Assembly: GCA_943350875.1 (NCBI GenBank)
Contig: CALRAL010000004.1
Location: 1 to 55,008, forward strand
Origin: Candidatus Nomurabacteria bacterium
GTDB taxonomy: Bacteria > Patescibacteriota > Minisyncoccia > Phycocordibacterales > UBA9973
Direction of reading: 5' to 3'
Length of the DNA stretch: 55,008 nucleotides
A program made the translations under genes and the position numbers. This document shows, one piece after another, positions 8,374-25,353 of this stretch (the stretch's first letter is position 1; each line of letters opens with the position of its first letter). Below the pieces are notes generated by a model that worked only from the letters and a program-made list of their open reading frames with translations, was not told where the DNA came from and ran no database searches.

Positions 8374-11289
8374 GTGAGAAAAATGCAGAAGTTAAATCAA
8401 AAAATGAAGAATTGCATCACCACACTGCTCATAGTGAGCTTTGTGGCTATGCCTATTTTAAATGCCTTTCCTAAAAAAGCAGAGGCACAGAGTATCGGTG
8501 CAAACGCCAATGGCCTCGGTCCACTAATAGCCCAACTACCTGGATGCATACAACTAGCAAAAGACGCTGTAAGCGGTGTTGGGGATTTTATTGGTAATTT
8601 ATTCAGTTCCAATACTAGCAATATACCAGGTAGTTCAGATTTTGTAGGACCAATACAACCAGCAGAAGATAGGAGTGATTTCGTAGGACCACCAGCACCC
8701 AATCTTGAAGATAAAGCAACTAATGGAATAGCAGAAACTAGTGCTGTTACAGTAGTTATAAAAGGATCAGCAGAAAAAAATATAGCTGATTCGAAAACTG
8801 CAGATGAAGCCACTGCGAAAAACGTTGCAGCTCAGCGTAAAAACGACACATGCTTGAAAGCTATCGGTAAAGTAATGGTAAAATTGCTTTTGCAGAAGTT
8901 GACGCAAAGTATGGTAGATTGGATAAACAATGGCTTCAATGGTAAACCAGCTTTTATCCAAAGCCCAGGACAATTCTTTGGCGATATCGCTAAAAATGAA
9001 TTCTTGCAATTTGGGGCAGAGATGAATCCACCGGAATTATACCCATTTGCTAGGGCATTCCTGCAAACTCAAGCTAACGCTTTCAAAAAGAAATTTCATG
9101 ACAACGCAAAATACTCTTTAGATAAATTAATCTATGAAACAACCCCAAACTGCCAAGATGAAAATGGAATACAGATAAGATGTGGTGCTATTGCATTCTA
9201 TCAAAACTTTAACAATGGCGGATGGAATGCTTGGGCCAATGCCACACTACCACAGAATAATCCTGTTGGTTTTCAGATAATAGCAAGTAATGAATTACAA
9301 GATAGATTGAGAGGTCTTTCCAAATCAACAGGTGAGATTATACAAGATTCATTAAATTGGTCTGGAGGGTTTCTCAACCAAGAGCATTGTATAAGCCCAG
9401 CGCATAACATATCGAGAGCAGAAGATGCTGAAGCATTAAAAACATTCGGAAATAATGGACCAACAGCCAAAGATTTATCAGATTGGAAATATGAATATGG
9501 AAACGAACCAATACCTAGACGTTGCACCGGGGGGTTTGAAAATATAACTCCTGGAAAACTAGTAGCAGAAGCAGCTACGAGAGTGACTGCCTACCCAGAG
9601 AATGACTATCTGAAAGCAGATGACTTGAATGATGCAATAGCAGCTATTTTGGATGCTACATTGAACCATTTTGCGGTCAAATGGATGGATGAAGGGTTCA
9701 TTGCTCTTGATAAAGCATTTGGGCCAAAAGCAAAAGCAGGTGGGTTTGAATCTGAGCCCTATGGTGAGAGAAGAAGCACTAGAACAGAAGAAGATTATGA
9801 TAGGAATGACCTAGGTAGAAGCAAATTCTTACAAAATCATCCGAACTTTAATATCCGCACAGACTTAACCCAAGCACTCATAGACGAACAGAGGACTTAC
9901 CAAGATAAATTGAAAAAGCAAAATGAATCTATCACAGATTTAATAAAAGTTATTTACCAGCTTGATTACTGCATCCCAGGTCCTCACCCAGGTTGGTATG
10001 AAGATTCACAGAGAAATTTGGATGTACAAACAAATGCAATAAAATCTGAAACAACAGAAAGCCTCAAAGATGTCACTTTAGAAGGAATATCAAAAATTGC
10101 CAATGTTGGAGCACCGATAGGTGGTGCGATAGGTGGTGCAGCCCTAGCATCAGCATTATTCACTACAACAGCAGTGGGTGGAGCGGCGGCGGCGGGAGCC
10201 ACAGCAGGAAGTGTTGTCCCCATTGTAGGAACAATTATTGGAGCTGCAGTAGGTGCGGCAATAGCTTATGGAATACAAACTTTTAGTGATGGTAAGGATG
10301 AAGAAAAAGTACAACTTTTTTATGCCAGTGTAATAAATGGATTAACTGGCATACAACCTAGTTGGAAAGGAACCGATGATCCTAAAAAACAAAATTTTAG
10401 AAGCAAAGAAGGGACTGTAAATGTAATAAATACAATCTATCAAAGATATGCCAATATAATCGCGAAAACTTATACTACCGAATTCTTGCCAGATGTATAT
10501 AAAGAGGCAACCACAAAGTTTAATGAGGTCAAAGGATACAATCAAATCTTTTTAGATAATGTAGACGAGATAAATAATAGAGAAACTACTATAAAAAAAT
10601 TAATAGAAATAAAAAAAGGAATTGATGAATTAAATAATAGAAAAAGTGTCACTGTAGGTGGAGAAATATTAGCTACTGATAGAGAAAATAAAAAACAATT
10701 TCTAGAACAATATGAAATTGATTTGAAACCATTGATAAAAAAATTCGGGAGATTATCTTCAGGTATGGTTAACGGTGACGATATATCAAATGTTGATAAT
10801 TTAACAAAACAAGTAAATGACGAAAAAAGTTATGTGTATAAAGAGCTATTAAAAGGCCCAGATGGTTGTGAACAACAAATGGTAGAAATTATGAAAAAAA
10901 TAAAAGATGACTTTACAACAAACCCAAATGATCAAGAAAAAGAAGTAAGAAAAGACATTTTCGAAACAAAAAGGATGACTTATCCTGTAGAGATATTGTA
11001 TGACTATAATTACATAGCAGATGGTGCTTCCATACCAGACCCTTGGAATAGTGGTTACGACAAAAATAAAAACATATCTCATAATGATCTTGGTCCAGGG
11101 TTCTTGAGTAAGCTATATTTCAAAATATTTGGTGATGGTAGCAGTAATCAGACAAATCAAATAACTCATCCATTAGATGTCTGGGATTTCTTTGGACATA
11201 ACACAGATGAAGGAACCAAAGAAAGAGCAATAGGTACAAGAAATGATGATTATAATGGCAAATTTGAAAGAGTTATTGGGATTTATTAA
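8374..11289 (+). CDS. Large secreted or membrane protein (971 aa), first gene of the T4SS-like locus. An alternative ATG start lies at 8383.
   Basis: N-terminal signal/TM segment (CITTLLIVSFVAMPILNAFPKKAEA). Central Gly/Ala-rich hydrophobic hairpin (GAPIGGAIGGAALASALFTTTAVGGAAAAGATAGSVVPIVGTIIGAAVGAAIAYG). Coiled C-terminal half. Confidence 0.6.
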   Translation: MRKMQKLNQKMKNCITTLLIVSFVAMPILNAFPKKAEAQSIGANANGLGPLIAQLPGCIQLAKDAVSGVGDFIGNLFSSNTSNIPGSSDFVGPIQPAEDRSDFVGPPAPNLEDKATNGIAETSAVTVVIKGSAEKNIADSKTADEATAKNVAAQRKNDTCLKAIGKVMVKLLLQKLTQSMVDWINNGFNGKPAFIQSPGQFFGDIAKNEFLQFGAEMNPPELYPFARAFLQTQANAFKKKFHDNAKYSLDKLIYETTPNCQDENGIQIRCGAIAFYQNFNNGGWNAWANATLPQNNPVGFQIIASNELQDRLRGLSKSTGEIIQDSLNWSGGFLNQEHCISPAHNISRAEDAEALKTFGNNGPTAKDLSDWKYEYGNEPIPRRCTGGFENITPGKLVAEAATRVTAYPENDYLKADDLNDAIAAILDATLNHFAVKWMDEGFIALDKAFGPKAKAGGFESEPYGERRSTRTEEDYDRNDLGRSKFLQNHPNFNIRTDLTQALIDEQRTYQDKLKKQNESITDLIKVIYQLDYCIPGPHPGWYEDSQRNLDVQTNAIKSETTESLKDVTLEGISKIANVGAPIGGAIGGAALASALFTTTAVGGAAAAGATAGSVVPIVGTIIGAAVGAAIAYGIQTFSDGKDEEKVQLFYASVINGLTGIQPSWKGTDDPKKQNFRSKEGTVNVINTIYQRYANIIAKTYTTEFLPDVYKEATTKFNEVKGYNQIFLDNVDEINNRETTIKKLIEIKKGIDELNNRKSVTVGGEILATDRENKKQFLEQYEIDLKPLIKKFGRLSSGMVNGDDISNVDNLTKQVNDEKSYVYKELLKGPDGCEQQMVEIMKKIKDDFTTNPNDQEKEVRKDIFETKRMTYPVEILYDYNYIADGASIPDPWNSGYDKNKNISHNDLGPGFLSKLYFKIFGDGSSNQTNQITHPLDVWDFFGHNTDEGTKERAIGTRNDDYNGKFERVIGIY

Positions 11290-11296
11290 ATTGGAG

Positions 11297-13744
11297 ATGC
11301 AAAAAAATATATTTAAAATATTAATACTTGGAATCATATTGTTGTCCACACCATTTTTTGCACATGCATGGGATATGAAAACTTATGAGGCTTTTGGAGT
11401 TCATCGTGACTCTGCAATCTTGTGGGGTGGTCTTGATGACACTGGAACCCTCAAATTTGAATTTAGAAGTAAAAGTGACTATGTAAATGCTGCTGATCCG
11501 ACAACAGGTCATCCAGATGGACAAATCTTAAGTGAGGATAATGATGACAATCATCCAGGGAAAAACACTTGTAGGGGTAAATTTAAAGACACAGGAACTG
11601 ATTATCAAAATCATCCAGGAACTGATTTTTCTGGATTCCTTGGAGCTTATTGTCGTCTCTTTAACTTAGAACCAAATACTACATACTATTTTCGTGCTTG
11701 CGCACAAAATCCAGACACAAACCATCCTTATAGATGCTCACCTATTATAAATAACTTTACGACAACAGTAGACCCTTCAAATAATCCTCTGCTAAAAACT
11801 GGTCCGACAGAAAAAGTAAGACAAAACAGTGCTAGACTGAAAGGATTATTTAATTCTAGTGATGGAAGTGATATTTTTGATATTTGGTTTGAATATAGTA
11901 CTGATGAACAAACAGTTCAAGAAAATTCTGGCATACCTATTGTTGCAAGGCATGATAGTAATGGTGGATCTCAAACAATAAGTGAACTAATACCAGAAAC
12001 CATGTATTATTATCGAGTTTGTGCTAATAATGAAAGAAATCACCCAACAATTGCAAACTGTGGAGAAATTGTTAGTTTCAAAACACTGAATGGTTTCAAA
12101 CCTCAAGTAATATCAGAAAGAGTAGAAAATGTACAACGCAAAAAAGCCATTTTGGTGGTAAATGTTAAACCAAATTATGCTGAAACTACTATTGATTTTC
12201 TGCTTGGAAAAGCAATAAACCAAAATATGAATGGTCTTCATTGTGACTTAAATGAAACGACAAATTCAAAAAGTATTCTTATTAAAGCAGGAACTACTTG
12301 GAACGAAGGTGAAACTCAATGGCCAGTAGAAAACTTAGAACCAAAAACATATTATTGTTTCAATGTAAAAATTCACAATAAATACGGAGACGATGAAGGA
12401 TTCGTAAAAACATTTTTCACTCGAGGCCCGGAAGACCTGCCCGAAAGCAACCTTGCTGTCATTACTGATGGAGCAGATTCTATTAACGACGTAAGTGCAA
12501 TATTAAAAGGTCACGGGAAGCCTGCCACTCCGCCAATAATCCCGCCAGCCACTACACCTGCTCCAGTCTTGCCGACCAGCGTATATTTCAGGTATTCTAC
12601 TGCCAATAAGCCACCAGTTTTCTGTAACGACATTTATGGTACTAATATGATTGCCACAAGGGACCAAAAAATAACAAGAAAACCCCCAAGCAACCCACCG
12701 CTTTCACCAACTGACCCAGAAAATCTAGTACAATTTTCTCAAAAAATCACTGGGCTTATCCCTGACACAATCTATTATTATTGCGCCGTAATTTCAGATA
12801 AGAATGACATAACTTATGGCTATGATAGTAATACTAACAAAATGCCATCTTTCCGCACAGCACCTTGTTCTACTTGTGATCAAACAAATGTAGAGACAAA
12901 AAGTGTAGATAGTGTGAATGAAATATCGGCAGAACTGAAAGGAACTTACCGTTCAACAGAAGTTGTAAAAACATATTTCGAATATAGGGCAATGGCACAA
13001 AAGACCAGAGAAGGAATAGCCTTAGAGATAGGGGATTGGATAAAAGTAGATGAAACAACACAAAGCAAGGGCTCTATTGGTGATATGGATTTCGTTCTAC
13101 CAAAATTAAATCCAAATACAACATATCAGTACAGAGCAGTGGCACAAGCAATGGAAAATAGTTTCACTCCTAACAAAAGATTCGTTGGACAGACTATCAC
13201 ATTTAAAACGGAACGTTTAAGTACAGACACAGGAAATGGCGGATATTCTGGATACAATAATAGCCAAAACAATACTAATTATGGCGACTTCGGAAATGGA
13301 AATAATTTTGATGGAGAAAATAACAGCTTCAATAATTATGGGGACAATAGTTCTAACAACAGTGGACCTAGTTTTACATTGGGACAAACTGCTACTCCAC
13401 CTGTTGATGCTACAGTACACAGTAAAGAAGGTGTCGAGACAGTATTCGCAAGGCAGATAGTGGGGAATAAAGCCCTCGCAAGCAAATATGGCTATACCGA
13501 TGGGCAAGATCTGCAAACTTTCGCAGGTACATTAGCACACTCATTGGCAATAACTTTCGGATATATAAGCGCCAGTGGTAAAGAAATACGTGTGGCACAG
13601 GCAGACGTGGCAGCCTATCAGTTGGAGTTCGTAAATGACAAATTGACTGTGTATGAATATTTCAGAAACATCATCATAAATATCCAAGATGTCACATCAG
13701 TTTTCAAAAATGTTCACGAATATGAGTATACCTTCAAGAAGTAG
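11297..13744 (+). CDS. Secreted protein with about 5 fibronectin-III-like repeats and an Asn/Gly/Ser-rich low-complexity segment
   Basis: The ATG at 11297 gives a signal peptide (MQKNIFKILILGIILLSTPFFAHA). Recurrent repeat ends: LEPNTTYYFRAC, LIPETMYYYRVC, LEPKTYYCFNV, LIPDTIYYYCAV, LNPNTTYQYRAV. The track start at 11243 overlaps the previous gene and lacks the signal-peptide logic. Confidence 0.65.
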   Translation: MQKNIFKILILGIILLSTPFFAHAWDMKTYEAFGVHRDSAILWGGLDDTGTLKFEFRSKSDYVNAADPTTGHPDGQILSEDNDDNHPGKNTCRGKFKDTGTDYQNHPGTDFSGFLGAYCRLFNLEPNTTYYFRACAQNPDTNHPYRCSPIINNFTTTVDPSNNPLLKTGPTEKVRQNSARLKGLFNSSDGSDIFDIWFEYSTDEQTVQENSGIPIVARHDSNGGSQTISELIPETMYYYRVCANNERNHPTIANCGEIVSFKTLNGFKPQVISERVENVQRKKAILVVNVKPNYAETTIDFLLGKAINQNMNGLHCDLNETTNSKSILIKAGTTWNEGETQWPVENLEPKTYYCFNVKIHNKYGDDEGFVKTFFTRGPEDLPESNLAVITDGADSINDVSAILKGHGKPATPPIIPPATTPAPVLPTSVYFRYSTANKPPVFCNDIYGTNMIATRDQKITRKPPSNPPLSPTDPENLVQFSQKITGLIPDTIYYYCAVISDKNDITYGYDSNTNKMPSFRTAPCSTCDQTNVETKSVDSVNEISAELKGTYRSTEVVKTYFEYRAMAQKTREGIALEIGDWIKVDETTQSKGSIGDMDFVLPKLNPNTTYQYRAVAQAMENSFTPNKRFVGQTITFKTERLSTDTGNGGYSGYNNSQNNTNYGDFGNGNNFDGENNSFNNYGDNSSNNSGPSFTLGQTATPPVDATVHSKEGVETVFARQIVGNKALASKYGYTDGQDLQTFAGTLAHSLAITFGYISASGKEIRVAQADVAAYQLEFVNDKLTVYEYFRNIIINIQDVTSVFKNVHEYEYTFKK

Positions 13745-13746: not shown

Positions 13747-13771
13747 CCTAGCAAGGACAGTCCTTGCTAGG
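13747..13771. repeat. 25-nt perfect palindrome (12-bp arms) immediately after the stop codon
   Basis: CCTAGCAAGGAC-a-GTCCTTGCTAGG. Its 21-nt core is repeated identically at 17400-17420. Confidence 0.85.
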
Positions 13772-13787
13772 GGGAAGTTATAAAGAA

Positions 13788-14435
13788 ATGCGAAAATCAA
13801 ATACAAAAACAAATAAAAGAGAAATAATGCTGATACCAAATGAAAGGGTGATCAGTAAGATATTTTTTATTAGAAACAAAAAGGTTATGATAGATAGTGA
13901 CCTCGCAGGACTTTATGGAGTTGAAACAAAAGTACTCAATCAGGCTGTTAAAAGAAATCTAGAAAGATTCCCAGAAGATTTTATGTTTCAGCTTACTAAA
14001 GAAGAAGCTAATGCTTGGAAATCAGAAGTTGAAATACCAAACTTAAGGTACCAAATTGGCACCTTAAGTTCAAGGTCACAATCTGTGACCTTGAATAACT
14101 TGAATTCACAATCTGTGACCTCAAGTTCAAGGTACCAAATTGGCACCTTGAAACAAGGTGAAAATATAAAATATCTGCCTTATGTTTTCACTGAACAAGG
14201 TGTCGCCATGCTCTCATCTGTTTTAAATAGCAAAAGAGCGATACAGGTAAATATCCAAATCATCCGAACGTTTACGCAGTTTAGAGAGTTATTGTTGGGG
14301 GATAAAGAATTAAGGACAAAGATAGAAAAAATGGAGAAAAAATATGACAGCAAATTGAAAGAAGTGTTTGATTTATTAAAACAGTTAATCATGGAAGAAG
14401 TAGAGCCAAAAGGTAAAATAGGATATAGGAGGTAG
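13788..14435 (+). CDS. ORF6N (KilA-N-related) DNA-binding domain protein
   Basis: IFFIRNKKVMIDSDLAGLYGVETKVLNQAVKRNLERFPEDFMFQLTKEE and LPYVFTEQGVAMLSSVLNS are the family hallmarks as I recall them. The TTG start at 13764 in the track lies inside the palindrome, so the ATG at 13788 (or 13827) is preferred. Confidence 0.75.
   Translation: MRKSNTKTNKREIMLIPNERVISKIFFIRNKKVMIDSDLAGLYGVETKVLNQAVKRNLERFPEDFMFQLTKEEANAWKSEVEIPNLRYQIGTLSSRSQSVTLNNLNSQSVTSSSRYQIGTLKQGENIKYLPYVFTEQGVAMLSSVLNSKRAIQVNIQIIRTFTQFRELLLGDKELRTKIEKMEKKYDSKLKEVFDLLKQLIMEEVEPKGKIGYRR
14042..14152 (+). repeat. Four tandem 27-30-nt palindromic units inside the ORF6N CDS
   Basis: Units at 14042-14068, 14069-14095, 14096-14125 and 14126-14152. 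Example: TTCAAGGTCACA-atc-TGTGACCTTGAA. They encode LRYQIGTLS / SRSQSVTLN / NLNSQSVTSS / SRYQIGTLK. Confidence 0.8.
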
Positions 14436-14484: not shown

Positions 14485-16977
14485 ATGCGAAATAAATTAT
14501 TTAAAAGAATAGTGATCGGAACGGTAATGCTAGGAATATTCCTCGCGCCTATTTCCGCTGGGATAAAGATAAATAATGAAAATAAAACTATGGCAGTAAA
14601 AGTAGATGCAAGCATAGTTAGAGCAGATGACCCAAAAGGAACTTGTGAGATCGCACACAATGGTCGTGGAATTAACTTTTCACAAAACCATATAACGGAA
14701 GCTGAATGTAATAAAATGGGTGATAGTAGAAGATGGACACCAGATAGTGGAACTGCTAAAACTGAAGACAGTCCTGGTTTTAGTCTAAATTGTGGAGTAG
14801 GTGGTTTATTTGGTTGGAGCGATAGTAGCCTTGGAGGTTGTATAGCGCAGATTGTTTATGCATTTTGGGTTGTATCTTCATGGATTGCATTATTGGGAGG
14901 ATTTGTTCTTGATTGGTTTATATATTATTCCACTAATAGCTCTTCATATACAGGTGCTTTTGTGGAGCAAGGTTGGGGGATAATACGAGATGTGGCAAAT
15001 ATATTCTTTATCATCGCTCTTCTTTATGTAGCTATCAGAACGGTATTGAGTTTGCATGTGGCAGATAATAAAAAACTGATTGGTATGGTAGTTTTCATCG
15101 CCTTATTTATAAATTTTAGTTTATTTACTACCAAAGTTGTGATTGACACTTCAAATATCCTGGCAAAAATATTCTATAATAACATAACTCCCGCAGACGA
15201 TAAAGGAAATTCTGCGATTGGTACTAAGGGTCAAAAATCTATTTCTGCAGCTATTGTTAGCCACTATAATCCACAACAAATTATGAGTGGAACAGAATAT
15301 AAAGAGGATGGAGGGGTCACTAAATTTATTTTTATTGTAATTGTTCTTTTGGTTGTCACCCTTTATACTGCTTATATTTTCTTTTCGGTAGCATTACTTT
15401 TTGTCAGTCGAGTCGCTTCTCTGTGGATGTCTATGATATTTGCTCCAATAGCTTTCATATCATATGTTGTGCCATTTGAAATTCCCGGCTTTGGTCATAA
15501 AAAATGGTGGACTGATTTATTTCAATTTGCATTTCTGGCTCCTATCTTTATATTCTTCCTTTATTTAATAGTACGATTTTTAAGTATTGGGGAACAACTT
15601 GTTGACACTAGTAATTCTACTAAAATAGTACCAAAAATAATGGGTGTGATGATTCCTTTTGTGTTATTGGTTGTCCTATTAAAACAAGCTAAAGATATTG
15701 CTGTAAAATATTCTGGTGAACTTGGTGCGGCACTGATGAAAGGAGCTCAAGCTGTTGGTGGGATAGCTCTCGGCGCAGCAACAGGGGGAGCAGCACTTGG
15801 TTTAAGCAGTCTGGCAGGAGCAGCAACTAAAAATACTCTTGCTGATGATGAGCTCCGTAAAAAAGCTGCAGGGGGAGACAAAGTAGCACAAGGAAAAATA
15901 GATAGAGCCAATCGCTTGGCTTCAAAAAGTTTTGATATAAGACAAACAGGAATAGGTAAGGGATTTAGTAAAATGTCTGGTATGGACATAAGTAAAGGAA
16001 TTGGAATCGATGCAATAAGTGCTGAAAACTTAAAAGGAGGAGTAAAAGGGAGAAATGATCGTAAGGTAGAAAAATATGAAGAAAAAATGAAGAGCTATGA
16101 AATGACAGCATCAGAAGCTCAAATCCAAAATGGAAAAGCAGATAATTATAAAAAAGGCTATGAAAAAGATAAGAAGGAAGCTAAAAAAATATCAGATAAT
16201 AACCAAGAAGTAAATTATGACAAAGCACTAAATATTCAGAAAAATAAACTTGCAGCCGATAAAGAAAAATATGATAACACATATAATAACGCATTGAATG
16301 CATATAAAGCTAGTGGTAATACTGGAGCTACTGCTGAAAATTTATTTAAAGAAAGATATGAGAAAAGGAATCCTCCAATTTTTACATCATTTGATGAAGA
16401 AAGTTTTAGAAAAAAATATAACAAAGAGCATGAGAAGGACGAATTTGATGAAGAGGCATTTAAAAATGCTTATGAAAAAGGAGGGGATTTAAGTAAGTTT
16501 GGATTAAATAAAACGGTTGAAGGAAAAGTTTATACAGCAGCAGAAGAAAATAAAGAGCGCAGAAAGGCCTATGCCTATAGTCTTAAATACCCAAAAAGAG
16601 ATGAAAATGGTAAAGGAATTACAAATGAACAAGGTCAGCCAGTTGGGGGAGATTTTGGAAAAGCACTCAGAGAGAGCATGAAAAATAGACTTGTACCTAC
16701 AGGTGAACTAAGTAAAACATTATTAACAGGAGCATTAACATATGGTATGGCTCCCCTTATTGGAGGAATAATAGATGCCATAAAAGCAACAAGACCCGTA
16801 AGTAAAGAATTAACAGCCAGAGTAGAAAAGGGTAAAAGTGATCTTGAAAAATTCTCTGATGTAATTAAAAAAGCAACAGGAGGAAACCTCCGTGCCAAAG
16901 AAGAAGCAGGTGAAACAATGCATAAGGTAGTTAATAAAACAGAAAGCAATGATAGTTCAGTAAAAAAAGATCATTAG
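14485..16977 (+). CDS. Polytopic membrane protein, VirB6/TrbL-like, with a long Lys/Glu-rich C-terminal tail
   Basis: Signal/TM segment at the N-terminus, then at least 6 predicted TM helices (for example FIFIVIVLLVVTLYTAYIFFSVALLF and LFQFAFLAPIFIFFLYLIV). A Gly/Ala-rich segment follows. It lies next to PrgI-like and VirB4-like genes. Confidence 0.5.
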   Translation: MRNKLFKRIVIGTVMLGIFLAPISAGIKINNENKTMAVKVDASIVRADDPKGTCEIAHNGRGINFSQNHITEAECNKMGDSRRWTPDSGTAKTEDSPGFSLNCGVGGLFGWSDSSLGGCIAQIVYAFWVVSSWIALLGGFVLDWFIYYSTNSSSYTGAFVEQGWGIIRDVANIFFIIALLYVAIRTVLSLHVADNKKLIGMVVFIALFINFSLFTTKVVIDTSNILAKIFYNNITPADDKGNSAIGTKGQKSISAAIVSHYNPQQIMSGTEYKEDGGVTKFIFIVIVLLVVTLYTAYIFFSVALLFVSRVASLWMSMIFAPIAFISYVVPFEIPGFGHKKWWTDLFQFAFLAPIFIFFLYLIVRFLSIGEQLVDTSNSTKIVPKIMGVMIPFVLLVVLLKQAKDIAVKYSGELGAALMKGAQAVGGIALGAATGGAALGLSSLAGAATKNTLADDELRKKAAGGDKVAQGKIDRANRLASKSFDIRQTGIGKGFSKMSGMDISKGIGIDAISAENLKGGVKGRNDRKVEKYEEKMKSYEMTASEAQIQNGKADNYKKGYEKDKKEAKKISDNNQEVNYDKALNIQKNKLAADKEKYDNTYNNALNAYKASGNTGATAENLFKERYEKRNPPIFTSFDEESFRKKYNKEHEKDEFDEEAFKNAYEKGGDLSKFGLNKTVEGKVYTAAEENKERRKAYAYSLKYPKRDENGKGITNEQGQPVGGDFGKALRESMKNRLVPTGELSKTLLTGALTYGMAPLIGGIIDAIKATRPVSKELTARVEKGKSDLEKFSDVIKKATGGNLRAKEEAGETMHKVVNKTESNDSSVKKDH

Positions 16978-17029: not shown

Positions 17030-17776
17030 ATGGATGAAAAAACAACACAAATGATAAAAGAGCGATTTGATGCTTTGCCTAAAATGATCCAGGAGGCAAT
17101 TCTCTCATCTGGTTATGAAAATTCACTAATAGAAATTGGTAAAAAATATCAATTAAATGTTGAACAAATGGGCACGCTTGAGCTGGAAACAACCTTGACA
17201 ATGATGGGAATAACCGCTACTAAAGATTTTGAAGTTGAACTGACACGCGAGCTTAAATTTGATAAAATAAAAGGTGCGCAAATAGTCACAGATATTAATG
17301 AGAAAGTATTTTTGACTATCCGAGAATTACTGAAAATAATGAATACACCACCGGGAGAAAAATCAGAACTTGATGAACCTGTTGAATTAGAAGAACCTAT
17401 AGCAAGGACAGTCCTTGCTAGTAATGCTAGTAAAAATGAAGGGGAGGGAAATAAAAATGTGTTAAAATCTGCTGGGATAGAGATACTGGATGGAGATAAA
17501 AGAATGGATGAAAAAGAAATTGAAAAAAATAGAGTAGTACAAAATATCTCAAAATTGACTGACTTTTCAAAAGCTACAACTATTAAAACAGAATATTCAT
17601 TAAATAATATTTCAAAAGCTGGGGTATCAGTGCCCAAAACAGAACCATCCCCATCGTTAGTAAAAACAGCTATGCCTGGGGGAATAATGCCAACATCAAC
17701 TGTGTCGCAAGGAGCAAATTTATCACCATCATACGGAATAAAATCTGACCCTTACAGGATGTCACCGAATGAATAG
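17030..17776 (+). CDS. Hypothetical protein (248 aa) within the T4SS-like locus
   Basis: Clean ORF with no recognised motif. Carries the in-frame palindrome at 17400-17420. Confidence 0.5.
   Translation: MDEKTTQMIKERFDALPKMIQEAILSSGYENSLIEIGKKYQLNVEQMGTLELETTLTMMGITATKDFEVELTRELKFDKIKGAQIVTDINEKVFLTIRELLKIMNTPPGEKSELDEPVELEEPIARTVLASNASKNEGEGNKNVLKSAGIEILDGDKRMDEKEIEKNRVVQNISKLTDFSKATTIKTEYSLNNISKAGVSVPKTEPSPSLVKTAMPGGIMPTSTVSQGANLSPSYGIKSDPYRMSPNE
17400..17420. repeat. 21-nt palindrome in frame inside the CDS
   Basis: TAGCAAGGAC-a-GTCCTTGCTA, identical to 13749-13769. Encodes IARTVLA. Confidence 0.85.
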
Positions 17777-17807: not shown

Positions 17808-18260
17808 ATGCAATTCAAAGTTCCACAATTTTTAGATATAGAAGACAAGATTTTCGGGCCTTTCACCTTTAAGCAGTTCGTGTACCTCGCTGGAGGAGGA
17901 GGGCTCTGCTACATATTATTCAAACTCCTTGGATTCTTGGGAAGCTCAATACCAGTGCTCGCAGTAGCTGGATTCTCATTGATATTAGCATTCTATAGAC
18001 CAAATAATAAACCATTCTTAAATATGATAGAAGCCAGTGTAAAATATGCAATGCAAGATAAACTATACATCTGGAAAAGACGAAAAAACACAAAAGAATA
18101 CAGACAAGAAGAGGAAAAAGCTATGGAATTAAAAACAAAAATGATGCAGAAGAATGGAAAAAGATTGAGTGGAAGTAAATTGCGTGACTTGGCTTGGAGT
18201 TTGGATGTGTTAGATTTAAAAAAACCTGTCTCGACGCAAAGCGAGGAAAAATCACAATAA
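17808..18260 (+). CDS. PrgI-family (VirB3-like) small membrane protein
   Basis: MQFKVPQFLDIEDKIFGPFTFKQFVYLAGGGG followed by two TM segments. This N-terminal pattern is typical of PrgI-family T4SS components. It sits directly upstream of VirB4. Confidence 0.65.
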   Translation: MQFKVPQFLDIEDKIFGPFTFKQFVYLAGGGGLCYILFKLLGFLGSSIPVLAVAGFSLILAFYRPNNKPFLNMIEASVKYAMQDKLYIWKRRKNTKEYRQEEEKAMELKTKMMQKNGKRLSGSKLRDLAWSLDVLDLKKPVSTQSEEKSQ

Positions 18261-18264: not shown

Positions 18265-18906
18265 ATGTCGTTAAATGCAAAAGCAACTCAAGAGTTTGTC
18301 CCAATCAAGGAAGTCCGTGATGGTATCATTGTATTAAAAGATGGAAATTTACGTTCCATAGTCTTGGCAAATTCTACAAACCTCTCCTTAAAATCAAACG
18401 ATGAACAAAGAGCCACCATTATGCAATTCCAGAACTTCTTGAATACCTTAGACTTCCCAGTACAAATATCAGTTCAATCAAGAAAATTGGACATTAGGCC
18501 TTATATTTTGCTTTTGGAAAACAGAATGGCGGTACAAAATGAACCATTACTTAAATTGCAAACAAAAGAATATATAGAATTTATCAAAAATTTTACAGAA
18601 ACAGTGAGCATAATGACAAAAAGTTTCTTTGTGGTTGTGCCTTATACTCATACGACATTGAAATCAGATTCTGGAATTTTTAAAAGATTTTTCTCAAAGA
18701 AAGACAATATTGAAGAAAAATTGCGAGAACAGACGGACTTTGAAGAAAAAAGGTCTCAACTGGAACAGAGGGTGAGTGTCATACAGCAAGGACTCAGTCG
18801 TTGTGGCATAAAATCAGCCCAATTAGGGACAGAGGAGATAGTGGAAGTACTTTATAAAGTATTTAATCCGGGAGAATTAGAAGGTAAGATTGACATTAGT
18901 AGTTGA
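18265..18906 (+). CDS. VirB4/PrgJ N-terminal-domain-like protein (stand-alone ORF)
   Basis: TQEFVPIKEVRDGIIVLKDGNLRSIVLANSTNLSLKSNDEQRATIMQFQNFLNTLDFPVQI resembles the N-terminus of Gram-positive conjugative VirB4 ATPases. It is in the same frame as the following ATPase ORF. Confidence 0.5.
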   Translation: MSLNAKATQEFVPIKEVRDGIIVLKDGNLRSIVLANSTNLSLKSNDEQRATIMQFQNFLNTLDFPVQISVQSRKLDIRPYILLLENRMAVQNEPLLKLQTKEYIEFIKNFTETVSIMTKSFFVVVPYTHTTLKSDSGIFKRFFSKKDNIEEKLREQTDFEEKRSQLEQRVSVIQQGLSRCGIKSAQLGTEEIVEVLYKVFNPGELEGKIDISS

Positions 18907-18927
18907 AAGTGAAAAGTTATAAAGTTT

Positions 18928-20781
18928 ATGAGTATTTTTGATAAATTATTTGGTAAAAAAGAAAAAGTAGAAGATGGAGAAAGGGGAGCAAAGGCCTCTG
19001 TTTTGGCAGTGTTACCAGAAGAGATATATGAATCAGCTACCCTTGAGCTCCAAGACGTCATTGCTCCATCAGCCCTCAAAATAGAACCAAAATCAATAAG
19101 TTTGGGAGACAAGATAGCTCGTACTTTTTTTATAATATCTTATCCAAAATTTTTGAGCGACAACTGGTTCTCGCCAATCATCAATTTAGATAAAGTTTTC
19201 GATGTTTCAATATACATTAGCCCCATAGACACATCGCTCGCCCTCCGCCAATTCCAAAAAAAGGTAGCTGAAGTACAAAGCCAGATAAATGCTCGTCAAT
19301 CAAAAGGCATGGTGCGGGATCCAATGCTTGACACCGCCTATCAAGATCTAGAAGGACTCCGCGACAACCTAATCCAAGCCCAAGAAAAGATGTTTGATGT
19401 GGGAATATACATCACCATCTATGCGGACAATGATTTGGAACTTTTCAAAGTGGAAAATGAGATAAAATCAATTTTGGAATCAAAGCTCATATACATCAAG
19501 CCTGCTCTTTTCCAACAAGAAGAAGGTTTTAAAAGCATCATCCCTATCGGCACAGACCTTATAAATATCAATCAGAAATTGAATTCTGAACCTCTCTCAA
19601 GCGTATTCCCATTTATATCTTTCGATCTGACTTCAGACAGGGGAATACTTTATGGCATAAACAGACACAATTCTTCTTTGGTTATTTTCGACAGATTTTC
19701 GTTGGAAAATTACAATTCCGTCACCTTTGCAAAGTCTGGTAGTGGTAAATCTTACTGCACAAAACTAGAAATCTTGCGTTCGCTGATGTTTGACATAGAT
19801 GTCATAGTCATAGATCCAGAAAAAGAATACGAATACTTGTCTGAAGCAGTGGGTGGACGATATTTCAATATCTCACTTTCTTCAGATCACCACATCAATC
19901 CGTTTGACCTGCCAATGCCGAGGGAAGATGAGACAGCCGAAGACGTGCTCCGTTCAAATACCATAAACCTAGTCGGACTTTTCAGACTAATGTTGGGAGG
20001 GCTCACTCCTGAAGAAGACTCAATAGTGGACAGAGCCATCTCTGAAACTTATGCCATCAAAGACATCACCCCTGAATCAGATTTTTCAAATATTGAACCG
20101 CCCCTCCTTTCAGATTTCGAAATGGTATTGCAGGGGATGGAAGGTAGTGATTCTCTAGTGCAAAGACTTGTAAAATATACGAGGGGAACTTGGGCCACAT
20201 TCTTAAACAGACCATCCAATGTGGATATAAACAAAAAGTTCATCGTGTTCTCTATCCGCGATATGGAAGACGAATTAAAACCGGTTGCTATGTACATAAT
20301 AATGCACTTCATTTGGAATGCTATCCGCAAGAATTTAAAAAAACGCCTACTCGTCGTGGATGAGGCTTGGTGGATGATGAAATCAGAGGACACTGCTTCA
20401 TTCCTATATTCTATTGCCAAAAGAGGTAGAAAATACTTCCTAGGGCTTGCAACTATTACCCAAGACGCGGCGGACTTTATGAAAAGCCCTTATGGAGTAC
20501 CAATTGTCACGAACTCTTCTATCCAAATACTTTTAAAACAATCTCCATCAACCATAGATGTGTTGCAGAAAACTTTCAACCTTACAGACGAAGAAAAATA
20601 TCTGCTTCTGGAGTCTGGAGTGGGGGAGGGCATATTCTTTGCTGGATTGAAACATGTCGCTATCAAAGTCATCTCTTCTTATACCGAAGACCAGATCATC
20701 ACTTCTGATCCATCTCAAATATTATCCATCAAGAAAGCTAAAAACGATTTGGAAGAAGCCGAAGCCCAAAAGAAAGGTTAG
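18928..20781 (+). CDS. virB4: VirB4-family T4SS ATPase (C-terminal NTPase portion)
   Basis: Walker A FAKSGSGKSY and Walker B LLVVDEAWWMM. The conserved GLATITQD block follows. Confidence 0.8.
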   Translation: MSIFDKLFGKKEKVEDGERGAKASVLAVLPEEIYESATLELQDVIAPSALKIEPKSISLGDKIARTFFIISYPKFLSDNWFSPIINLDKVFDVSIYISPIDTSLALRQFQKKVAEVQSQINARQSKGMVRDPMLDTAYQDLEGLRDNLIQAQEKMFDVGIYITIYADNDLELFKVENEIKSILESKLIYIKPALFQQEEGFKSIIPIGTDLININQKLNSEPLSSVFPFISFDLTSDRGILYGINRHNSSLVIFDRFSLENYNSVTFAKSGSGKSYCTKLEILRSLMFDIDVIVIDPEKEYEYLSEAVGGRYFNISLSSDHHINPFDLPMPREDETAEDVLRSNTINLVGLFRLMLGGLTPEEDSIVDRAISETYAIKDITPESDFSNIEPPLLSDFEMVLQGMEGSDSLVQRLVKYTRGTWATFLNRPSNVDINKKFIVFSIRDMEDELKPVAMYIIMHFIWNAIRKNLKKRLLVVDEAWWMMKSEDTASFLYSIAKRGRKYFLGLATITQDAADFMKSPYGVPIVTNSSIQILLKQSPSTIDVLQKTFNLTDEEKYLLLESGVGEGIFFAGLKHVAIKVISSYTEDQIITSDPSQILSIKKAKNDLEEAEAQKKG

Positions 20782-20806: not shown

Positions 20807-21805
20807 ATGTTATATAATAGAAATATGATAAAAAAATACTTAATTTTATGTCTAATATTCGCAAGTATTTCTTTTGCTACTGTAGCTTATGCGCAAGTGA
20901 GAGATGGCGACATATCTTTAAATATTTCCCCAGCGAATCCAAACCCAAATGAAAACGTCACAGCTACTCTAAACAGCTACGTCATCACTCTCGACAATGC
21001 GAATATCTCTTGGTCTGTAGAGGGCCAAGAGATGTCTTCTGGCATAGGTAAAAAGAGCTTTTCCTTTAATTCTGGGAGTCTCGGATCTCAACTAAACCTG
21101 ACAGCAACCATAAACACTGTGGATGGCCAAACCATCACCAAGAGTGTGACCATCACCCCTGCAGGATTGGACATCCTCTGGGAAGGGGTAGATTCATATA
21201 CTCCTCCGTTTTATAAAGGTAAAACATTGGTGGCTAATCAAGGGGCTTTCAAAGTCGTAGCTATGCCAACTTTGAACATGCTAGGCGGGAGAGTGAGCCC
21301 AAACAACCTTTCCTATAAATGGGGCAAGGATGGCAGTGGGGCTCCAAATGCTTCCGGCTGGGGCAAGAGTTATTATATTTTCCGCAATAGCTACTTAGAC
21401 CGAGAGAATGAGGTGGAAGTGGAAGTAAAAGACATCCTAGGCAGTACCAGCGCCACAGGGAAGATAGATTTACAGACAGTGGATCCGAAAATAGTATTCT
21501 ACAAGAAAAGTCCGCTCACCGGCACAAGATTAGAAAACAGCATCAAAGACGGAGCTTTCATAAATGGGAGCGGGGAGACACTCGTAGCTGTGCCATACTT
21601 CTTCTCACCTAAAAACATAGCTAGGCCAGAGCTCACTTTTGATTGGCTTTTAAATAATCAAAAAGTGGAAACTCCAGATTCCAAAAATACGCTCTCAATC
21701 AAGACAGAAAATGGAGAATCCGGAACTGCAAGGATAAAAGTGGTGATTAATAACATCAACACACTTTTCCAAAGTATGGAAAAAGAAATAAATGTCAGTT
21801 TTTAA
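20807..21805 (+). CDS. Secreted beta-rich hypothetical protein. An alternative ATG start lies at 20825.
   Basis: Signal peptide MIKKYLILCLIFASISFATVAYAQ. The last codons (MEKEINVSF-stop) lie in the 39-bp duplicated segment. Confidence 0.6.
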   Translation: MLYNRNMIKKYLILCLIFASISFATVAYAQVRDGDISLNISPANPNPNENVTATLNSYVITLDNANISWSVEGQEMSSGIGKKSFSFNSGSLGSQLNLTATINTVDGQTITKSVTITPAGLDILWEGVDSYTPPFYKGKTLVANQGAFKVVAMPTLNMLGGRVSPNNLSYKWGKDGSGAPNASGWGKSYYIFRNSYLDRENEVEVEVKDILGSTSATGKIDLQTVDPKIVFYKKSPLTGTRLENSIKDGAFINGSGETLVAVPYFFSPKNIARPELTFDWLLNNQKVETPDSKNTLSIKTENGESGTARIKVVINNINTLFQSMEKEINVSF

Positions 21806-21832: not shown

Positions 21833-21861
21833 TTGACAATGTATATACATGACGCTACAAT
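21833..21861 (+). promoter_or_regulatory. Consensus sigma70-like promoter motif at the left end of the cassette
   Basis: TTGACA (21833-21838), a 17-nt spacer, then TACAAT (21856-21861). It overlaps the only in-frame ATG/TTG starts of brnT, so either the motif or the start assignment is uncertain. Confidence 0.3.
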
Positions 21862-22162
21862 TAAAAATGAAGGGGGTCGAATAATTAAAAAAGTTGTTGG
21901 TTTTGAATGGGATAATGGAAATAAAGGGAAAAACCTTTTAAAACATCAAATAAAAAACGAGGAGTGTGAGGAAGTTTTCTTTGATCAAAACAAGAAGATT
22001 TTAAAAGACAATATTCACTCTATTAAAGAAGAACGTTATATACTGCTAGGGAAGACAAAAAAACAAAAATTAATTTTCTTAGTTTTCACCATCAGAAAAA
22101 ACCAAATAAGGGTAATCTCAGCTAGAGATCTTAATAAAAAAGAATATAAATTATATGAATAA
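21839..22162 (+). CDS. brnT: BrnT-family (DUF497) toxin
   Basis: GFEWDNGNKGKNLLKHQIKNEECEEVF...RYILLGKT...LVFTIRKNQIRVISARDLNKKE matches the DUF497 pattern. Overlaps brnA by 8 nt. The start is uncertain (TTG 21833 or ATG 21839). Confidence 0.75.
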   Translation: MYIHDATIKNEGGRIIKKVVGFEWDNGNKGKNLLKHQIKNEECEEVFFDQNKKILKDNIHSIKEERYILLGKTKKQKLIFLVFTIRKNQIRVISARDLNKKEYKLYE

Positions 22163-22415
22163 AAAAATTCCAAAATTTAAAAACGAAGCTAAAGAAAGAG
22201 ATTTTTGGTTAAAATTAGATCTGTCCAAGCATTTTAAACGATCTGATTTTGAGAAAGTGTCATTTCCTAATTTGAAACCATCTTCTCAGCCCATTTCATT
22301 GCGTCTGCCATCGCATCTTATTGTCCGAGTAAAAGAACATGCCAACGAGCTTGATATGCCTTATCAATCATTGATGAAGAAATATATCGCGCAAGGTATT
22401 TTATCAGAGGTGTAA
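22155..22415 (+). CDS. brnA: BrnA-type antitoxin (CopG/RHH-like C-terminus)
   Basis: EAKERDFW...ISLRLPSHLIVRVKEHANELDMPYQSLMKKYIAQGI is the typical BrnA_antitoxin pattern. Paired with brnT. Confidence 0.7.
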   Translation: MNKKIPKFKNEAKERDFWLKLDLSKHFKRSDFEKVSFPNLKPSSQPISLRLPSHLIVRVKEHANELDMPYQSLMKKYIAQGILSEV

Positions 22416-22487: not shown

Positions 22488-22526
22488 ATGGAAAAAGAAA
22501 TAAATGTCAGTTTTTAAGAAATACAA
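22488..22526 (+). repeat. Right copy of the 39-bp direct repeat
   Basis: Identical to 21776-21814. Supplies the start codon and first 7 codons of the downstream gene. Confidence 0.9.
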
Positions 22527-23919
22527 GAAAATAGTTTTACCTTTCTTTATACTTTTCGTATTTTTTGGTATTTCACATTATGTAAATGCAATAACATTAT
22601 CTACGATAGGAATAGATGGATCTAATTGGGGGATAAAAGCAACAGCAACAGGTAGTGACATAAGAACATATAATTTTAGTGAGATACCAAGTGTAATTAT
22701 CTATAAAGGAACCAGTATAGTAAAAACACAAAACCTCCCTAACTATGTAAATGACATTGCAAATATATTAATCACAGGTCTAGAAAAAAATACTACATAC
22801 AAAGCAGTTATAAAAAGTAACCCACCTGAACCTGGAGTTCCAATGGAACTTGCTCAGATTGAAAAAACCACAGGGGTAGCAACTCCAAGCCAAGATCCAA
22901 TAATAATAGGTATAACTCCAACTCCTTCAACTCAACCAACTAAAACTTGTTTCCAATGGGATAAAAATCCCAATAATGATACAATTTTAACCCCAGGAAA
23001 ATGGTGGTTCAGTAATTTAACTTCTTCTTATTTATATTTTTGGGGACCATATGACAGTGAAAATAATTGCAAAGATAAACTAAAAGATTTATCTGCTCCA
23101 CCAAAAGATACAGATACTTCATATACTTTACTTGCTCCACTACCTGGATTGGGGCTTGGAGATAATAAACCTTTTGAGACTGATAATAAAAAAAATCCAT
23201 GTGCTTTTGGAAACTATTTGAACATCATGATAAAGCTGATTATAGGTATATGCGCAGTGCTAGCCATGGTGATGATAGTGATGGGGGGGATAGAGTACAT
23301 GACAAGTGAACTCGTCTCTACTAAAGAGCAAGGCAAAGACACCATCACGAACGCCATCCTCGGGCTCGTCATAGCCCTCGGCGTTTTTGTCATATTAAAC
23401 ACCCTAAACCCCGACCTGCTGAAACTGTGTTTAGATAATATGCAACCAGCGACAATAACAATGCTAAGTGAAGAAGATCAACCGCAAACATATGATCTAG
23501 AAACAAAGTTATACCCCAATGGAATTAAGTTTGGTGTAAAATGGGATGATTCAGTTAGTCAAAAAGCAACTTTACCTAACTATGTAAAAATCTCTCCTCT
23601 GAAGGAATGCATAACTGTAGGACAACCAAACTGTACATCAACTAGAGGCTTAAACCCCGACAATGTAAAAACAACACAATGGGGATGCTTGTGTGATTTG
23701 GTAATTACAGGTGGAACAGAATTTTGGTTACATGGTGGTAAAAATGGAAAGACAACTCATAAACTTGATAGCGGAACTGTAGATCTACGTCTTGAAACAA
23801 AATTAAATGATTATATTAATAAATATGGGAAAAAAACTGAAGGAAAATATGGTCCAGTATATACAATAGGTAGTATTTCTTATTTAAAAGAAAATGATCA
23901 TTGGCATGTTTATAATTAA
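22504..23919 (+). CDS. T4SS-pilin-like (TrbC/VirB2-type) protein with an N-terminal extracellular domain and a C-terminal putative LAS/M15 metallopeptidase domain
   Basis: Signal/TM segment at the N-terminus. Pilin-like two-helix hairpin (NPCAFGNYLNIMIKLIIGICAVLAMVMIVMGGIEYMTS...TITNAILGLVIALGVFVILNTL). C-terminal VITGGTE...THKLDSGTVDL...DHWHV resembles the SxHxxGxAxD ... HxH zinc-ligand arrangement. Confidence 0.6.
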   Translation: MSVFKKYKKIVLPFFILFVFFGISHYVNAITLSTIGIDGSNWGIKATATGSDIRTYNFSEIPSVIIYKGTSIVKTQNLPNYVNDIANILITGLEKNTTYKAVIKSNPPEPGVPMELAQIEKTTGVATPSQDPIIIGITPTPSTQPTKTCFQWDKNPNNDTILTPGKWWFSNLTSSYLYFWGPYDSENNCKDKLKDLSAPPKDTDTSYTLLAPLPGLGLGDNKPFETDNKKNPCAFGNYLNIMIKLIIGICAVLAMVMIVMGGIEYMTSELVSTKEQGKDTITNAILGLVIALGVFVILNTLNPDLLKLCLDNMQPATITMLSEEDQPQTYDLETKLYPNGIKFGVKWDDSVSQKATLPNYVKISPLKECITVGQPNCTSTRGLNPDNVKTTQWGCLCDLVITGGTEFWLHGGKNGKTTHKLDSGTVDLRLETKLNDYINKYGKKTEGKYGPVYTIGSISYLKENDHWHVYN

Positions 23920-23925
23920 ATTTTT

Positions 23926-25353
23926 ATGACAACAAGAAATTTAACACTTTTAATAATAATTTTGATCGGAGCGGTTTTGGTGACGCTGGGCTTTTTGTAT
24001 TTTTACAAACCAGCAAACAATGATGGAACAGCTGGAAGCGCTACAAACTTCATCTCACAACTCTTCCCATTTGGTAAAAGTAAAACTGTGACAACTCCTG
24101 GAGGAGAAACTCCGGTAGATGTGTCAGGATTCGTTCCCACCCCAGTAGAGGAAATACCAAAAACAAAAATAACAAAAGTTTCTACTATGCCTATAGCAGG
24201 ATATGGAGTGTTTATGAAGGAAAGGTTTAAAGATGTGCCGGTGGTAGCAAACCCTACCCCAACCCTCCCCTTGTCAGGGGAGGGAGATATTATTAGCCCC
24301 CCTGACAAGGGGGGTAAGGGGGGTTTAATTGCCAAAGGGGATTTAGGGGGTCAGAAGGATAAAAAAGGGAAAGTTATTCCCCAAAAACCCACAGCTCCTC
24401 CTACTGAATTCGTCCCAGCTTTGAGATATGTGGACAGAACAACAGGTAACATTTATCAAACTTACGCAGATAAAATTGAAGAAAGGAAATTCTCTGGCAC
24501 AATCATACCAAAAGTCTATGAAGCATATTTCGGGGACAAAGATGAGTCTGTAGTGATGCGATATTTGAAAGAAGACGATAAAACAATAGAGACTTTCGTC
24601 GGGGCCTTGGCCAAAGAATTCCTAGGAGCAGACTCTGATGGTAGTACAGATGTAAAAGGTTCTTTCTTGCCAGAAAATATCACTGACATGAGCATGTCTC
24701 CAGATGGGAAGAGAATGTTTTATTTATTTAATGTAGGCAATGGTACGACAGGAATAACTGCTGAAGCATCGGGTGGCCAGAAGAACCAGGTTTTCGATTC
24801 GCCATTTACAGAATGGTTGTCCTTTTGGCCAAGCAACAAAATGATTACTCTGACTACCAAACCCTCTGCCAATGTGCCAGGGTTTATGTACGCTATAGAC
24901 CCAGACAAAAAAGATTTTAATAGAATATTAGGAGGAATAAATGGCCTAACCACGCTCACCAGCCCTGATGGTAAGCTAGTATTGTTCGGTAACAATAATT
25001 TATCACTCAATATTTACAACATTGCGACTGGAAACATAAATCAAGTAAGTGTGAAAACACTCCCTGAAAAATGTGTTTGGGGTAGAGCAAGCGACAAAGT
25101 ATACTGTGCAGTACCAAAATCAATTGATGGAGCATCCTACCCAGATGATTGGTATCAAGGAGAAGTTTCATTTGGAGATGAAATATGGAGGATAGATGCC
25201 ATAAATGGCAATGCTGATATTTTAGGAGATCCTAGCTCTATGGTGGGTGGGGAAGAGGTGGATGGCATCAAACTTTCACTAGACGAAAATGAAGATTATC
25301 TATTTTTCGTGAACAAAAAGGATTCTTACCTTTGGAAATTAAACTTAAGGTAG
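23926..25353 (+). CDS. Membrane-anchored protein with TolB-like beta-propeller repeats
   Basis: N-terminal TM segment (LTLLIIILIGAVLVTLGFLYFY). Repeats SPDGKRMFY and SPDGKLVLF are typical of WD40-like beta-propeller (TolB/PD40) repeats. Confidence 0.6.
   Translation: MTTRNLTLLIIILIGAVLVTLGFLYFYKPANNDGTAGSATNFISQLFPFGKSKTVTTPGGETPVDVSGFVPTPVEEIPKTKITKVSTMPIAGYGVFMKERFKDVPVVANPTPTLPLSGEGDIISPPDKGGKGGLIAKGDLGGQKDKKGKVIPQKPTAPPTEFVPALRYVDRTTGNIYQTYADKIEERKFSGTIIPKVYEAYFGDKDESVVMRYLKEDDKTIETFVGALAKEFLGADSDGSTDVKGSFLPENITDMSMSPDGKRMFYLFNVGNGTTGITAEASGGQKNQVFDSPFTEWLSFWPSNKMITLTTKPSANVPGFMYAIDPDKKDFNRILGGINGLTTLTSPDGKLVLFGNNNLSLNIYNIATGNINQVSVKTLPEKCVWGRASDKVYCAVPKSIDGASYPDDWYQGEVSFGDEIWRIDAINGNADILGDPSSMVGGEEVDGIKLSLDENEDYLFFVNKKDSYLWKLNLR
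24259..24351. repeat. Composite C-run/G-run hairpin element in frame in the linker of the TolB-like protein
   Basis: ccaaccctccccTTGTCAggggaggg, a 12-nt spacer, ccccccTGACAAgggggg, then ggggatttaggggg. Homologous to 6071-6132. Encodes PTLPLSGEGDIISPPDKGGKGGLIAKGDLGG. Confidence 0.75.

Follow-up and report, generated by a model that had tools for sequence, protein, structure and literature searches.

A type IV secretion-like gene cassette conserved beside dnaA in Candidatus Nomurabacteria and related Paceibacteria

We analysed a 55,008-nucleotide stretch of DNA, hereafter the window, from Candidatus Nomurabacteria bacterium (GenBank assembly GCA_943350875.1, contig CALRAL010000004.1, positions 1 to 55,008 of the forward strand), in which a block of genes resembling a monoderm-type type IV secretion system (T4SS) lies close to dnaA. 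A reading made earlier from the letters alone, here called the sequence-only reading, had described thirteen co-oriented genes at 8374-25353. Thirteen open reading frames (ORFs), all on the plus strand and spaced by 4-88 nt, are indeed found there. Three of them, encoding an ORF6N protein, BrnT and BrnA, are genome-specific insertions and not apparatus genes. The start at 8374 did not stand: because the gene that we call g317 keeps its position between ksgA and A971, the first large gene, in related loci, the conserved cassette begins at 6629. Families were assigned by Pfam and NCBIfam profile searches of the window proteins, and curated or gathering cut-offs are quoted where they are given. 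The block is very probably a core-genome T4SS of the Paceibacteria (Patescibacteria, or Candidate Phyla Radiation), which falls in the Patescibacteria branch of the MPF-FATA conjugation machinery of monoderms and is chromosomally fixed beside the replication origin.

The VirB4 gene was compared with one genome per species from 185,579 species, and at least 589 relatives were found. The comparisons below use the best 80 of them, which are all metagenome-assembled genomes of Paceibacteria, Nomurabacteria or Parcubacteria with 75-90% amino-acid identity; this similarity ranking, which is not a tree, agrees with a place of the window's VirB4 in the Patescibacteria clade. Labels such as L011, L036 and L081 denote related loci or contigs.

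VirB4 (18928-20781, plus strand) is an ATPase of the MPF-FATA/CD1110 type. It scores 374 bits (E-value 1.2e-111) with the NCBIfam model NF045971 (conju_CD1110), whose curated cut-off is 325, and it also matches P-loop_TraG (PF19044, 2.6e-26) and AAA_10 in Pfam. The Walker A motif (AKSGSGKS at 268) and the Walker B motif (LLVVDE at 474) are both intact, and the enzyme is predicted to be catalytically intact. The gene in front of it (18265-18906, plus strand) encodes the N-terminal domain of VirB4 as a protein of its own. Its NCBIfam matches extend over positions 101-253 of VirB4_plasma (1.2e-11), positions 2-119 of CD1110 and positions 14-200 of the 201 positions of the TrsD model (1.6e-5). The split VirB4 that had been noticed at 18265-20781 is therefore a TrsD-like gene followed by a CD1110-family ATPase. 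At the boundary there are in-frame TGA codons at 18904 and 18910, and the next ATG is at 18928. In related loci each of the two has an ORF of its own (79 of 79), and in 57 of these the reading frames differ. Stop-codon recoding is ruled out as the cause of the split by the two in-frame TGA codons together with the different frames in the 57 relatives. Directly upstream of this pair, in 77 of the 80 loci as well as here, is a PrgI/VirB3-like small membrane protein (17808-18260, plus strand; PrgI, PF12666, 5.6e-8, 33.7 bits against a gathering score of 27). A VirB2-type pilin of 471 amino acids is encoded at 22504-23919 on the plus strand and matches T4SS_pilin (PF18895) over aa 244-300 (1e-6, 29.1 bits against a cut-off of 26.6). 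Thus the profile checks that the sequence-only reading had proposed for its PrgI and pilin assignments both gave scores above the cut-offs.

All window proteins were compared with the 80 loci by tblastn, and each locus of sufficient length shows one and the same gene order: uvrD-ksgA-g317-A971-(Fn3)-VirB6-like-D248-PrgI-TrsD-VirB4-E332-pilin-F475, then jag-yidC-rnpA and dnaA-dnaN. The conserved cassette is therefore syntenic in related genomes, a point on which the sequence-only reading had asked for a comparison. The median identity is 86% for VirB4, 77% for DnaA, 73% for TrsD and 69% for DnaN. In 56 of 56 loci VirB4 surpasses DnaA in conservation, and in 55 of 55 it surpasses DnaN. VirB4 is under strong purifying constraint, stronger than that on DnaA. 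On these comparisons the locus appears to be inherited vertically and not to be a mobile element.

In the window, the block ends 121 nt from jag-yidC-rnpA-rpmH, which lies on the opposite strand and converges with it, and dnaA-dnaN lies beyond. The rpmH gene for L34 (27062-27202, minus strand) is located between rnpA and dnaA (27297-28652). Perfect DnaA boxes TTATCCACA are found at 27220 (27220-27239, upstream of dnaA) and at 28743 (28735-28751, in the dnaA-dnaN spacer), and they likely mark oriC; the arrangement is that of a canonical origin. The cumulative GC skew shows no inversion there, and the GC content is uniform along the window. The only tRNA genes of the window are at 43.4 and 53.0 kb, and the block has neither a flanking tRNA nor repeat boundaries.

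No relaxase, VirD4/TcpA coupling protein, integrase or plasmid replication gene was found in the 55-kb window. Nor was any of them found in the 10 kb upstream, which belong to the same 150,551-bp contig (ENA ERZ27280321), or in 7.5 kb on the downstream side, for which a sister contig from ERZ27280322 was used. In all, about 72 kb were covered. The sequence-only reading had reported no relaxase or VirD4/TcpA-type protein in the window and had argued against a conventional conjugative element, naming an adjacent relaxase, coupling protein and integrase as the finding that would overturn its view. The absence holds in the window and in both flanks, and the position is fixed in the 80 species; the argument against a conventional conjugative element is borne out.

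The protein encoded at 14485-16977 (plus strand) had been taken for a VirB6/TrbL-like polytopic membrane protein. It has about seven hydrophobic helices and a long Lys/Ala/Glu-rich hydrophilic C-terminal tail of the "extended VirB6" type, and its gene is syntenic, upstream of PrgI, in 64 of the 80 loci. An AlphaFold2 model of aa 1-462 had a mean confidence (pLDDT) of 71, and the four best matches of this model in a Foldseek search of the PDB were TrwI/VirB6 chains of the R388 T4SS. The topology and the gene position fit a VirB6 protein. The label is plausible and not firm, because its support is the structure match whereas the sequence profiles are blank; the polytopic character stood, and the VirB6/TrbL call failed in the profile searches.

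The remaining genes of the cassette encode mostly envelope proteins that have no recognisable family, as the sequence-only reading had remarked; A971, D248, E332 and F475 are without a Pfam or NCBIfam family. Its 971-aa signal-peptide protein is present as A971 (8374-11289, plus strand), a predicted secreted or surface protein with a Gly/Ala-rich hydrophobic hairpin at aa ~570-635, and it is syntenic in 51 of the 80 loci. No Pfam, NCBIfam or PDB sequence match was found for it. A profile search of 1.84 billion representatives returned at least 4,452 representative clusters at an E-value of 1e-3 or below. When 30 distant members were searched against Pfam, the conserved part was blank in all of them, and Bact_surface_Ig-like was found elsewhere in three. 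A971 appears to found a large unannotated family whose conserved part has no Pfam model. No function could be assigned to it, since the word-index, profile and Pfam searches gave a big family without an annotated domain on that part.

The protein with five Fn3-like repeats is also present. B833 (11243-13744, plus strand) is a secreted protein with five "L.P.T.YY" repeat signatures, recognised by eye and by a regular expression, and it matches Pur_ac_phosph_N (8.8e-17) and fn3 (2.4e-10) in Pfam. Translation probably begins at the ATG at 11297. The gene is accessory and variable, with counterparts in only 14 of the 80 related loci. The first gene of the cassette, g317 (6629-7582, plus strand), was recognised by synteny. 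Its product is anchored in the membrane at the N-terminus and contains a thrombospondin-type-3-like DxDxDG motif, for which Pfam gave a weak TSP3_bac match (0.0069). By tblastn, 38 of the 80 loci have a syntenic ortholog, in each case between ksgA and A971. D248 (17030-17776, plus strand), between the VirB6-like gene and PrgI, has no transmembrane segments and is predicted to be cytoplasmic. It is syntenic in 53 of the 80 loci. Across an alignment of 22 orthologs, about 100 aa at the N-terminus form a conserved domain, and the C-terminus carries an invariant motif, DPYR, as a possible docking peptide. No match to D248 was found in Pfam, NCBIfam or the PDB.

The beta-rich secreted protein of the sequence-only reading corresponds to E332 (20807-21805, plus strand), a secreted or anchored protein that follows VirB4 in 75 of the 80 loci with about 98% coverage and with conserved length and position. 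Weak Ig-type Pfam matches were obtained with the window protein and its orthologs, and the protein is probably Ig-like. F475 (23926-25353, plus strand) is an N-terminally anchored extracytoplasmic protein, the last of the cassette, and is syntenic in 70 of the 80 loci. It had been called a TolB-like propeller, and the window protein itself lends this call no support: it is blank in Pfam and NCBIfam, and its profile found nothing among PDB sequences. Among 29 orthologs, PD40 was matched in one (0.004), NBCH_WD40 in one, and PG_binding_1, a peptidoglycan-binding domain, in the linker of two, so that a beta-propeller fold is faintly hinted at. Profiles of E332, F475, A971, D248 and g317 (the last built from 29 orthologs) gave no PDB sequence match. 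On this ground a VirB8-like or VirB1-like identity for E332, and assignments for D248 and g317, were rejected.

The pilin is composed of a signal peptide, an N-terminal region, a conserved YxLLAPLPG motif, a two-helix hairpin at aa 241-298 and a Cys/His-rich C-terminal domain at aa ~330-471. Besides PF18895, it weakly matches the NCBIfam Mbov_0395 pilin-like family of a mycoplasma integrative and conjugative element (ICE) (3e-4). The N-terminal region may be Fn3-like, judging from its sequence and from one homolog (P0177) that carries Pur_ac_phosph_N together with T4SS_pilin. There are 472 homologs, many of which are named "pilin". The hairpin and the C-terminal domain are found in most of 120 listed clusters; among the listed homologs, most have PF18895 and a few have PF04956 in addition. 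In other species, the domains that flank the hairpin differ. In the C-terminal domain, which is about 150 aa long, C369, C377, C395, C397, E406, H410, H419, D427, E463 and H466-W-H468 are invariant. The AlphaFold2 model of the pilin has a pLDDT of 88 overall and above 92 in this domain. Foldseek searches of the PDB and BFVD with the domain gave no matches. The H-x7-D and HWH motifs prompted the hypothesis of a zinc peptidase of the LAS, M15 or M23 type; this found no support, since neither the protein nor its profile had a PDB sequence match and the Foldseek searches with the domain gave nothing.

It is possible, and we put it forward tentatively, that this protein is a modular "decorated" pilin and not a minimal VirB2. 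Should it form polymers as VirB2 does, the outside of the conduit would bear a metal-binding and possibly enzymatic domain, which might modify the wall or the host envelope. Together with the A971 family and the DPYR tail of D248, this domain may represent lineage-specific T4SS parts under constraint above that on DnaA.

Three modules are embedded in the cassette: a pair of the MNT/HepT toxin-antitoxin type (7598-8366; Pfam), just upstream of the block as first described and inside the conserved cassette; an ORF6N protein with a KilA-N-type DNA-binding domain (13764-14435, plus strand; Pfam 3.8e-33); and a BrnT/BrnA toxin-antitoxin pair (21833-22415, plus strand; Pfam). All are intergenic in the cassette, and none is present at these positions in the 80 related genomes, which makes them secondary insertions. 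Among the relatives BrnT/BrnA was seen once, in L036, where its position is another one. We also observed a palindromic element, about 80 nt long, that has the core CCCCTTGTCAGGGG in inverted pairs, with six matches against 0.1 expected. In the window it is located at 6074-6120 (3' end of ksgA), 24267-24312 (F475) and 38596-38672 (inside tsaE). The copy in F475 lies in frame in a variable linker and encodes ...PLSGEGDIISPPDKGGKGG..., and the core was further found at L011 14673, L053 14407 and L015 10173; it is present in the F475 orthologs of two other species. The element is reminiscent of the Rickettsia palindromic elements, known for in-frame insertion within genes.

Elsewhere the window contains housekeeping genes: uvrD, ksgA, a penicillin-binding protein, tyrS, ruvABC, polA, uvrABC, fpg, S20 and a PilB-type ATPase. 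The last is a PilB-like T2SSE ATPase (36614-38329, minus strand), and a PilM gene lies just past the 3' end of the window (L082 19049-20131); besides its T4SS, the organism thus possesses a distinct set of type IV pilus genes. At the 5' end, the ORF at 43-2736 encodes the last 897 aa of a protein that is 1172 aa long and blank in Pfam, followed by a DUF5663 protein (2751-3056), and neither gene is conserved beside uvrD in the 80 relatives. A LysM-LysM-Peptidase_M23 gene (L081 4989-5978, minus strand) precedes window position 1 by about 2.3 kb and the cassette by about 8 kb. Its product is a candidate wall hydrolase, of a kind that a 2025 survey (PMC12102498) lists among VirB1-like proteins with extra domains.

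Systems of this kind have already been published, and the sequence-only reading agrees with the published conclusion. Wang et al. (2023, Cell; PMC10633639) showed by transposon sequencing (Tn-seq) that Southlakia epibionticum cannot grow epibiotically without its T4SS; the composition of this T4SS is Gram-positive-like, with pilins, and recognisable coupling and relaxase proteins are absent. Quinonero-Coronel et al. (2025, Microb Genom; PMC12102498) report VirB4 in 2,417 of 3,035 Patescibacteria genomes, as a monophyletic clade nested in MPF-FATA. According to the same authors, TrsD, PrgI/VirB3, VirB6 and PF18895-type pilins lie near virB4, relaxases are almost absent, and the Paceibacteria locus is close to dnaA, dnaN, rnpA, rpmH and ksgA. 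A 2025 review covers both studies (PMC12857230). The locus described here shares with that Patescibacteria-clade T4SS the VirB4, the separate TrsD, the PrgI/VirB3, a plausibly VirB6-like protein and the PF18895 pilin, the lack of a nearby relaxase or coupling protein, and the chromosomal position beside the same five genes. Nothing essential differs. The MNT/HepT, ORF6N and BrnT/BrnA modules are this genome's own, and the Fn3-repeat gene is shared with the 14 relatives mentioned above. The multi-domain Paceibacteria pilin and the partners g317, A971, D248, E332 and F475 are minor additions, absent from the descriptions in the passages of the survey that were searched.

The T4SS of Southlakia epibionticum ML1 (SEML1_0006-0019) is the sole member with functional data. 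It is likewise of the monoderm type, with pilin genes and with coupling and relaxase proteins unrecognised, and its low locus-tag numbers suggest an origin-proximal position like the one seen here. In Southlakia, which belongs to the Saccharimonadia, there is an array of six pilins, all small and divergent, and virB4 is followed by peptidase or lysozyme genes, whereas the present locus, set against it by description, has one large decorated pilin and no recognisable hydrolase in the block. Among the MPF-FATA systems (pCF10 prgF-prgL, pGO1/pSK41 trsC-trsE and CTn2 CD1110), the likeness lies in a VirB4 that reaches the CD1110 cut-off, in TrsD and VirB4 as two genes as in pGO1, and in the VirB6-VirB3-VirB4 order of pCF10; the order B6-B3-TrsD-B4 is collinear with the pCF10/pGO1 type. 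In contrast to those systems, a relaxase, a coupling protein, a VirB1-type hydrolase, a VirB8-like protein and a PrgB-type adhesin are unrecognised here, the locus is chromosomal, immobile and to all appearance vertically inherited, and a tblastn search of 72,556 plasmids with its VirB6-like protein found nothing. A preprint of December 2025 reports that the VirB2-like PrgF is needed for pCF10 transfer (bioRxiv 10.64898/2025.12.18.695078), so that the machinery of monoderms may have included pilins ancestrally.

How such a machine might operate can be sketched as follows. VirB4 and TrsD would dock on PrgI and the VirB6-like channel and would power the assembly of a pilin-based conduit that crosses the cell wall. 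A971, the Fn3 protein, E332, F475 and g317, as secreted proteins, may form the wall-spanning, extracellular and host-contact parts. The machine would move macromolecules between epibiont and host, by export of proteins or by uptake of host material, and would not perform conjugative export of DNA. By analogy with Southlakia epibionticum, it is probably needed for host-dependent growth. The sequence-only reading had favoured a T4SS-like surface machine that is encoded on the chromosome of an organism with a reduced genome and does not serve conjugation. The origin-proximal position, the fixed order, the constraint on VirB4 and the lack of mobility genes support that view.

Several points weigh against the view that the block is a core-genome T4SS. 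Pfam and NCBIfam are blank for the VirB6-like protein of the window and Pfam is blank for 50 members of its family, and its structure matches to TrwI/VirB6 are modest (E-values 0.027-0.13, probability 0.90-1.0, template modelling (TM) scores 0.34-0.46; the best match has 0.027, 1.0 and 0.46). Pfam and NCBIfam searches of the block proteins found no VirB8-like (NTF2-like) domain and no VirB1-like (SLT, CHAP or NlpC-P60) domain. A promoter and terminator scan of the block gave counts no higher than those of shuffled controls, so that operon boundaries could not be called. VirD4-like genes lie far from virB4 in many Patescibacteria according to the 2025 survey (PMC12102498), and a VirD4-like gene or a relaxase may lie beyond the 72 kb. 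Essentiality, finally, is extrapolated from a different class, the Saccharimonadia, to the Paceibacteria.

The block could instead be an ordinary ICE, or a recently domesticated remnant of one, whose mobility genes lie outside the window. All core components do derive from monoderm conjugation systems, and modules of a mobile type are embedded among them. However, these modules are missing in the relatives and are thus secondary insertions, the GC content is uniform, no integrase, relaxase or coupling protein was found in the roughly 72 kb covered, no tRNA or repeat boundary accompanies the block, and all loci of sufficient length among the 80 species share its location beside dnaA and its gene order. 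Such an origin is largely refuted and highly improbable. A decaying, non-functional locus, in which the split VirB4 is a pseudogene, can practically be set aside. It could appeal to the in-frame TGA between the two VirB4 parts, which share a frame in this window, but the two-gene arrangement in all 79 loci means that the split is ancestral and not a product of decay, and the frame differs in most of them. The arrangement equals the known TrsD and VirB4 pair (NCBIfam; PMC12102498), and the intact Walker motifs and the conservation of VirB4 already speak against decay. Fixed order and neighbours, an ancestral split and VirB4 conservation together exclude, in our judgment, both the ICE and the pseudogenised remnant.

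The remaining alternatives concern what a conserved machine does. VirB4 is the pilus-biogenesis ATPase in known T4SSs, and here it might do no more than assemble a decorated VirB2-type pilus for host attachment, with no translocation. The large extracellular domains of the pilin, the Fn3- and Ig-like secreted proteins around it and the missing coupling protein would suit such an organelle. We regard this as distinctly unlikely: the VirB6-like channel protein is retained and conserved, and since the genome already has the PilB-like and PilM genes for adhesion and the constraint on the locus exceeds that on DnaA, a second organelle for adhesion only is less parsimonious. Import of DNA or other nucleic acid, as by H. 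pylori ComB or the archaeal Ced system, with host DNA as a source of nucleotides or for recombination, is unlikely. The lack of a relaxase and a coupling protein makes conjugative export unlikely and counts in favour of import, and the C-terminal part of VirB4 matches the DNA-import ATPase CedB weakly and partially (1.5e-8 over ~70 residues). This match, however, is to the shared P-loop core only, with 33.8 bits against a cut-off of 700. The authors of the survey propose co-option for import of DNA or other macromolecules (PMC12102498), and Patescibacteria are described as being without nucleotide synthesis (PMC12102498, PMC12857230). On the other side, ComEC or ComB-type partners are absent from the block, the cassette has no conserved DNA-binding component, the ORF6N gene being a genome-specific insertion, and the same papers describe comEC-dependent competence in Southlakia as separable from T4SS essentiality (PMC12102498, PMC12857230).

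In conclusion, the window gives a clean Paceibacteria example of a T4SS cassette fixed beside oriC, with an ATPase that is more conserved than DnaA. Patescibacteria account for a large share of uncultivated bacterial diversity, and the T4SS is among the few machines that Tn-seq, in one species, has tied to their obligate host-dependent life. The published picture is unchanged by our finding. The lineage-conserved partners without annotation are targets for structural and genetic work.

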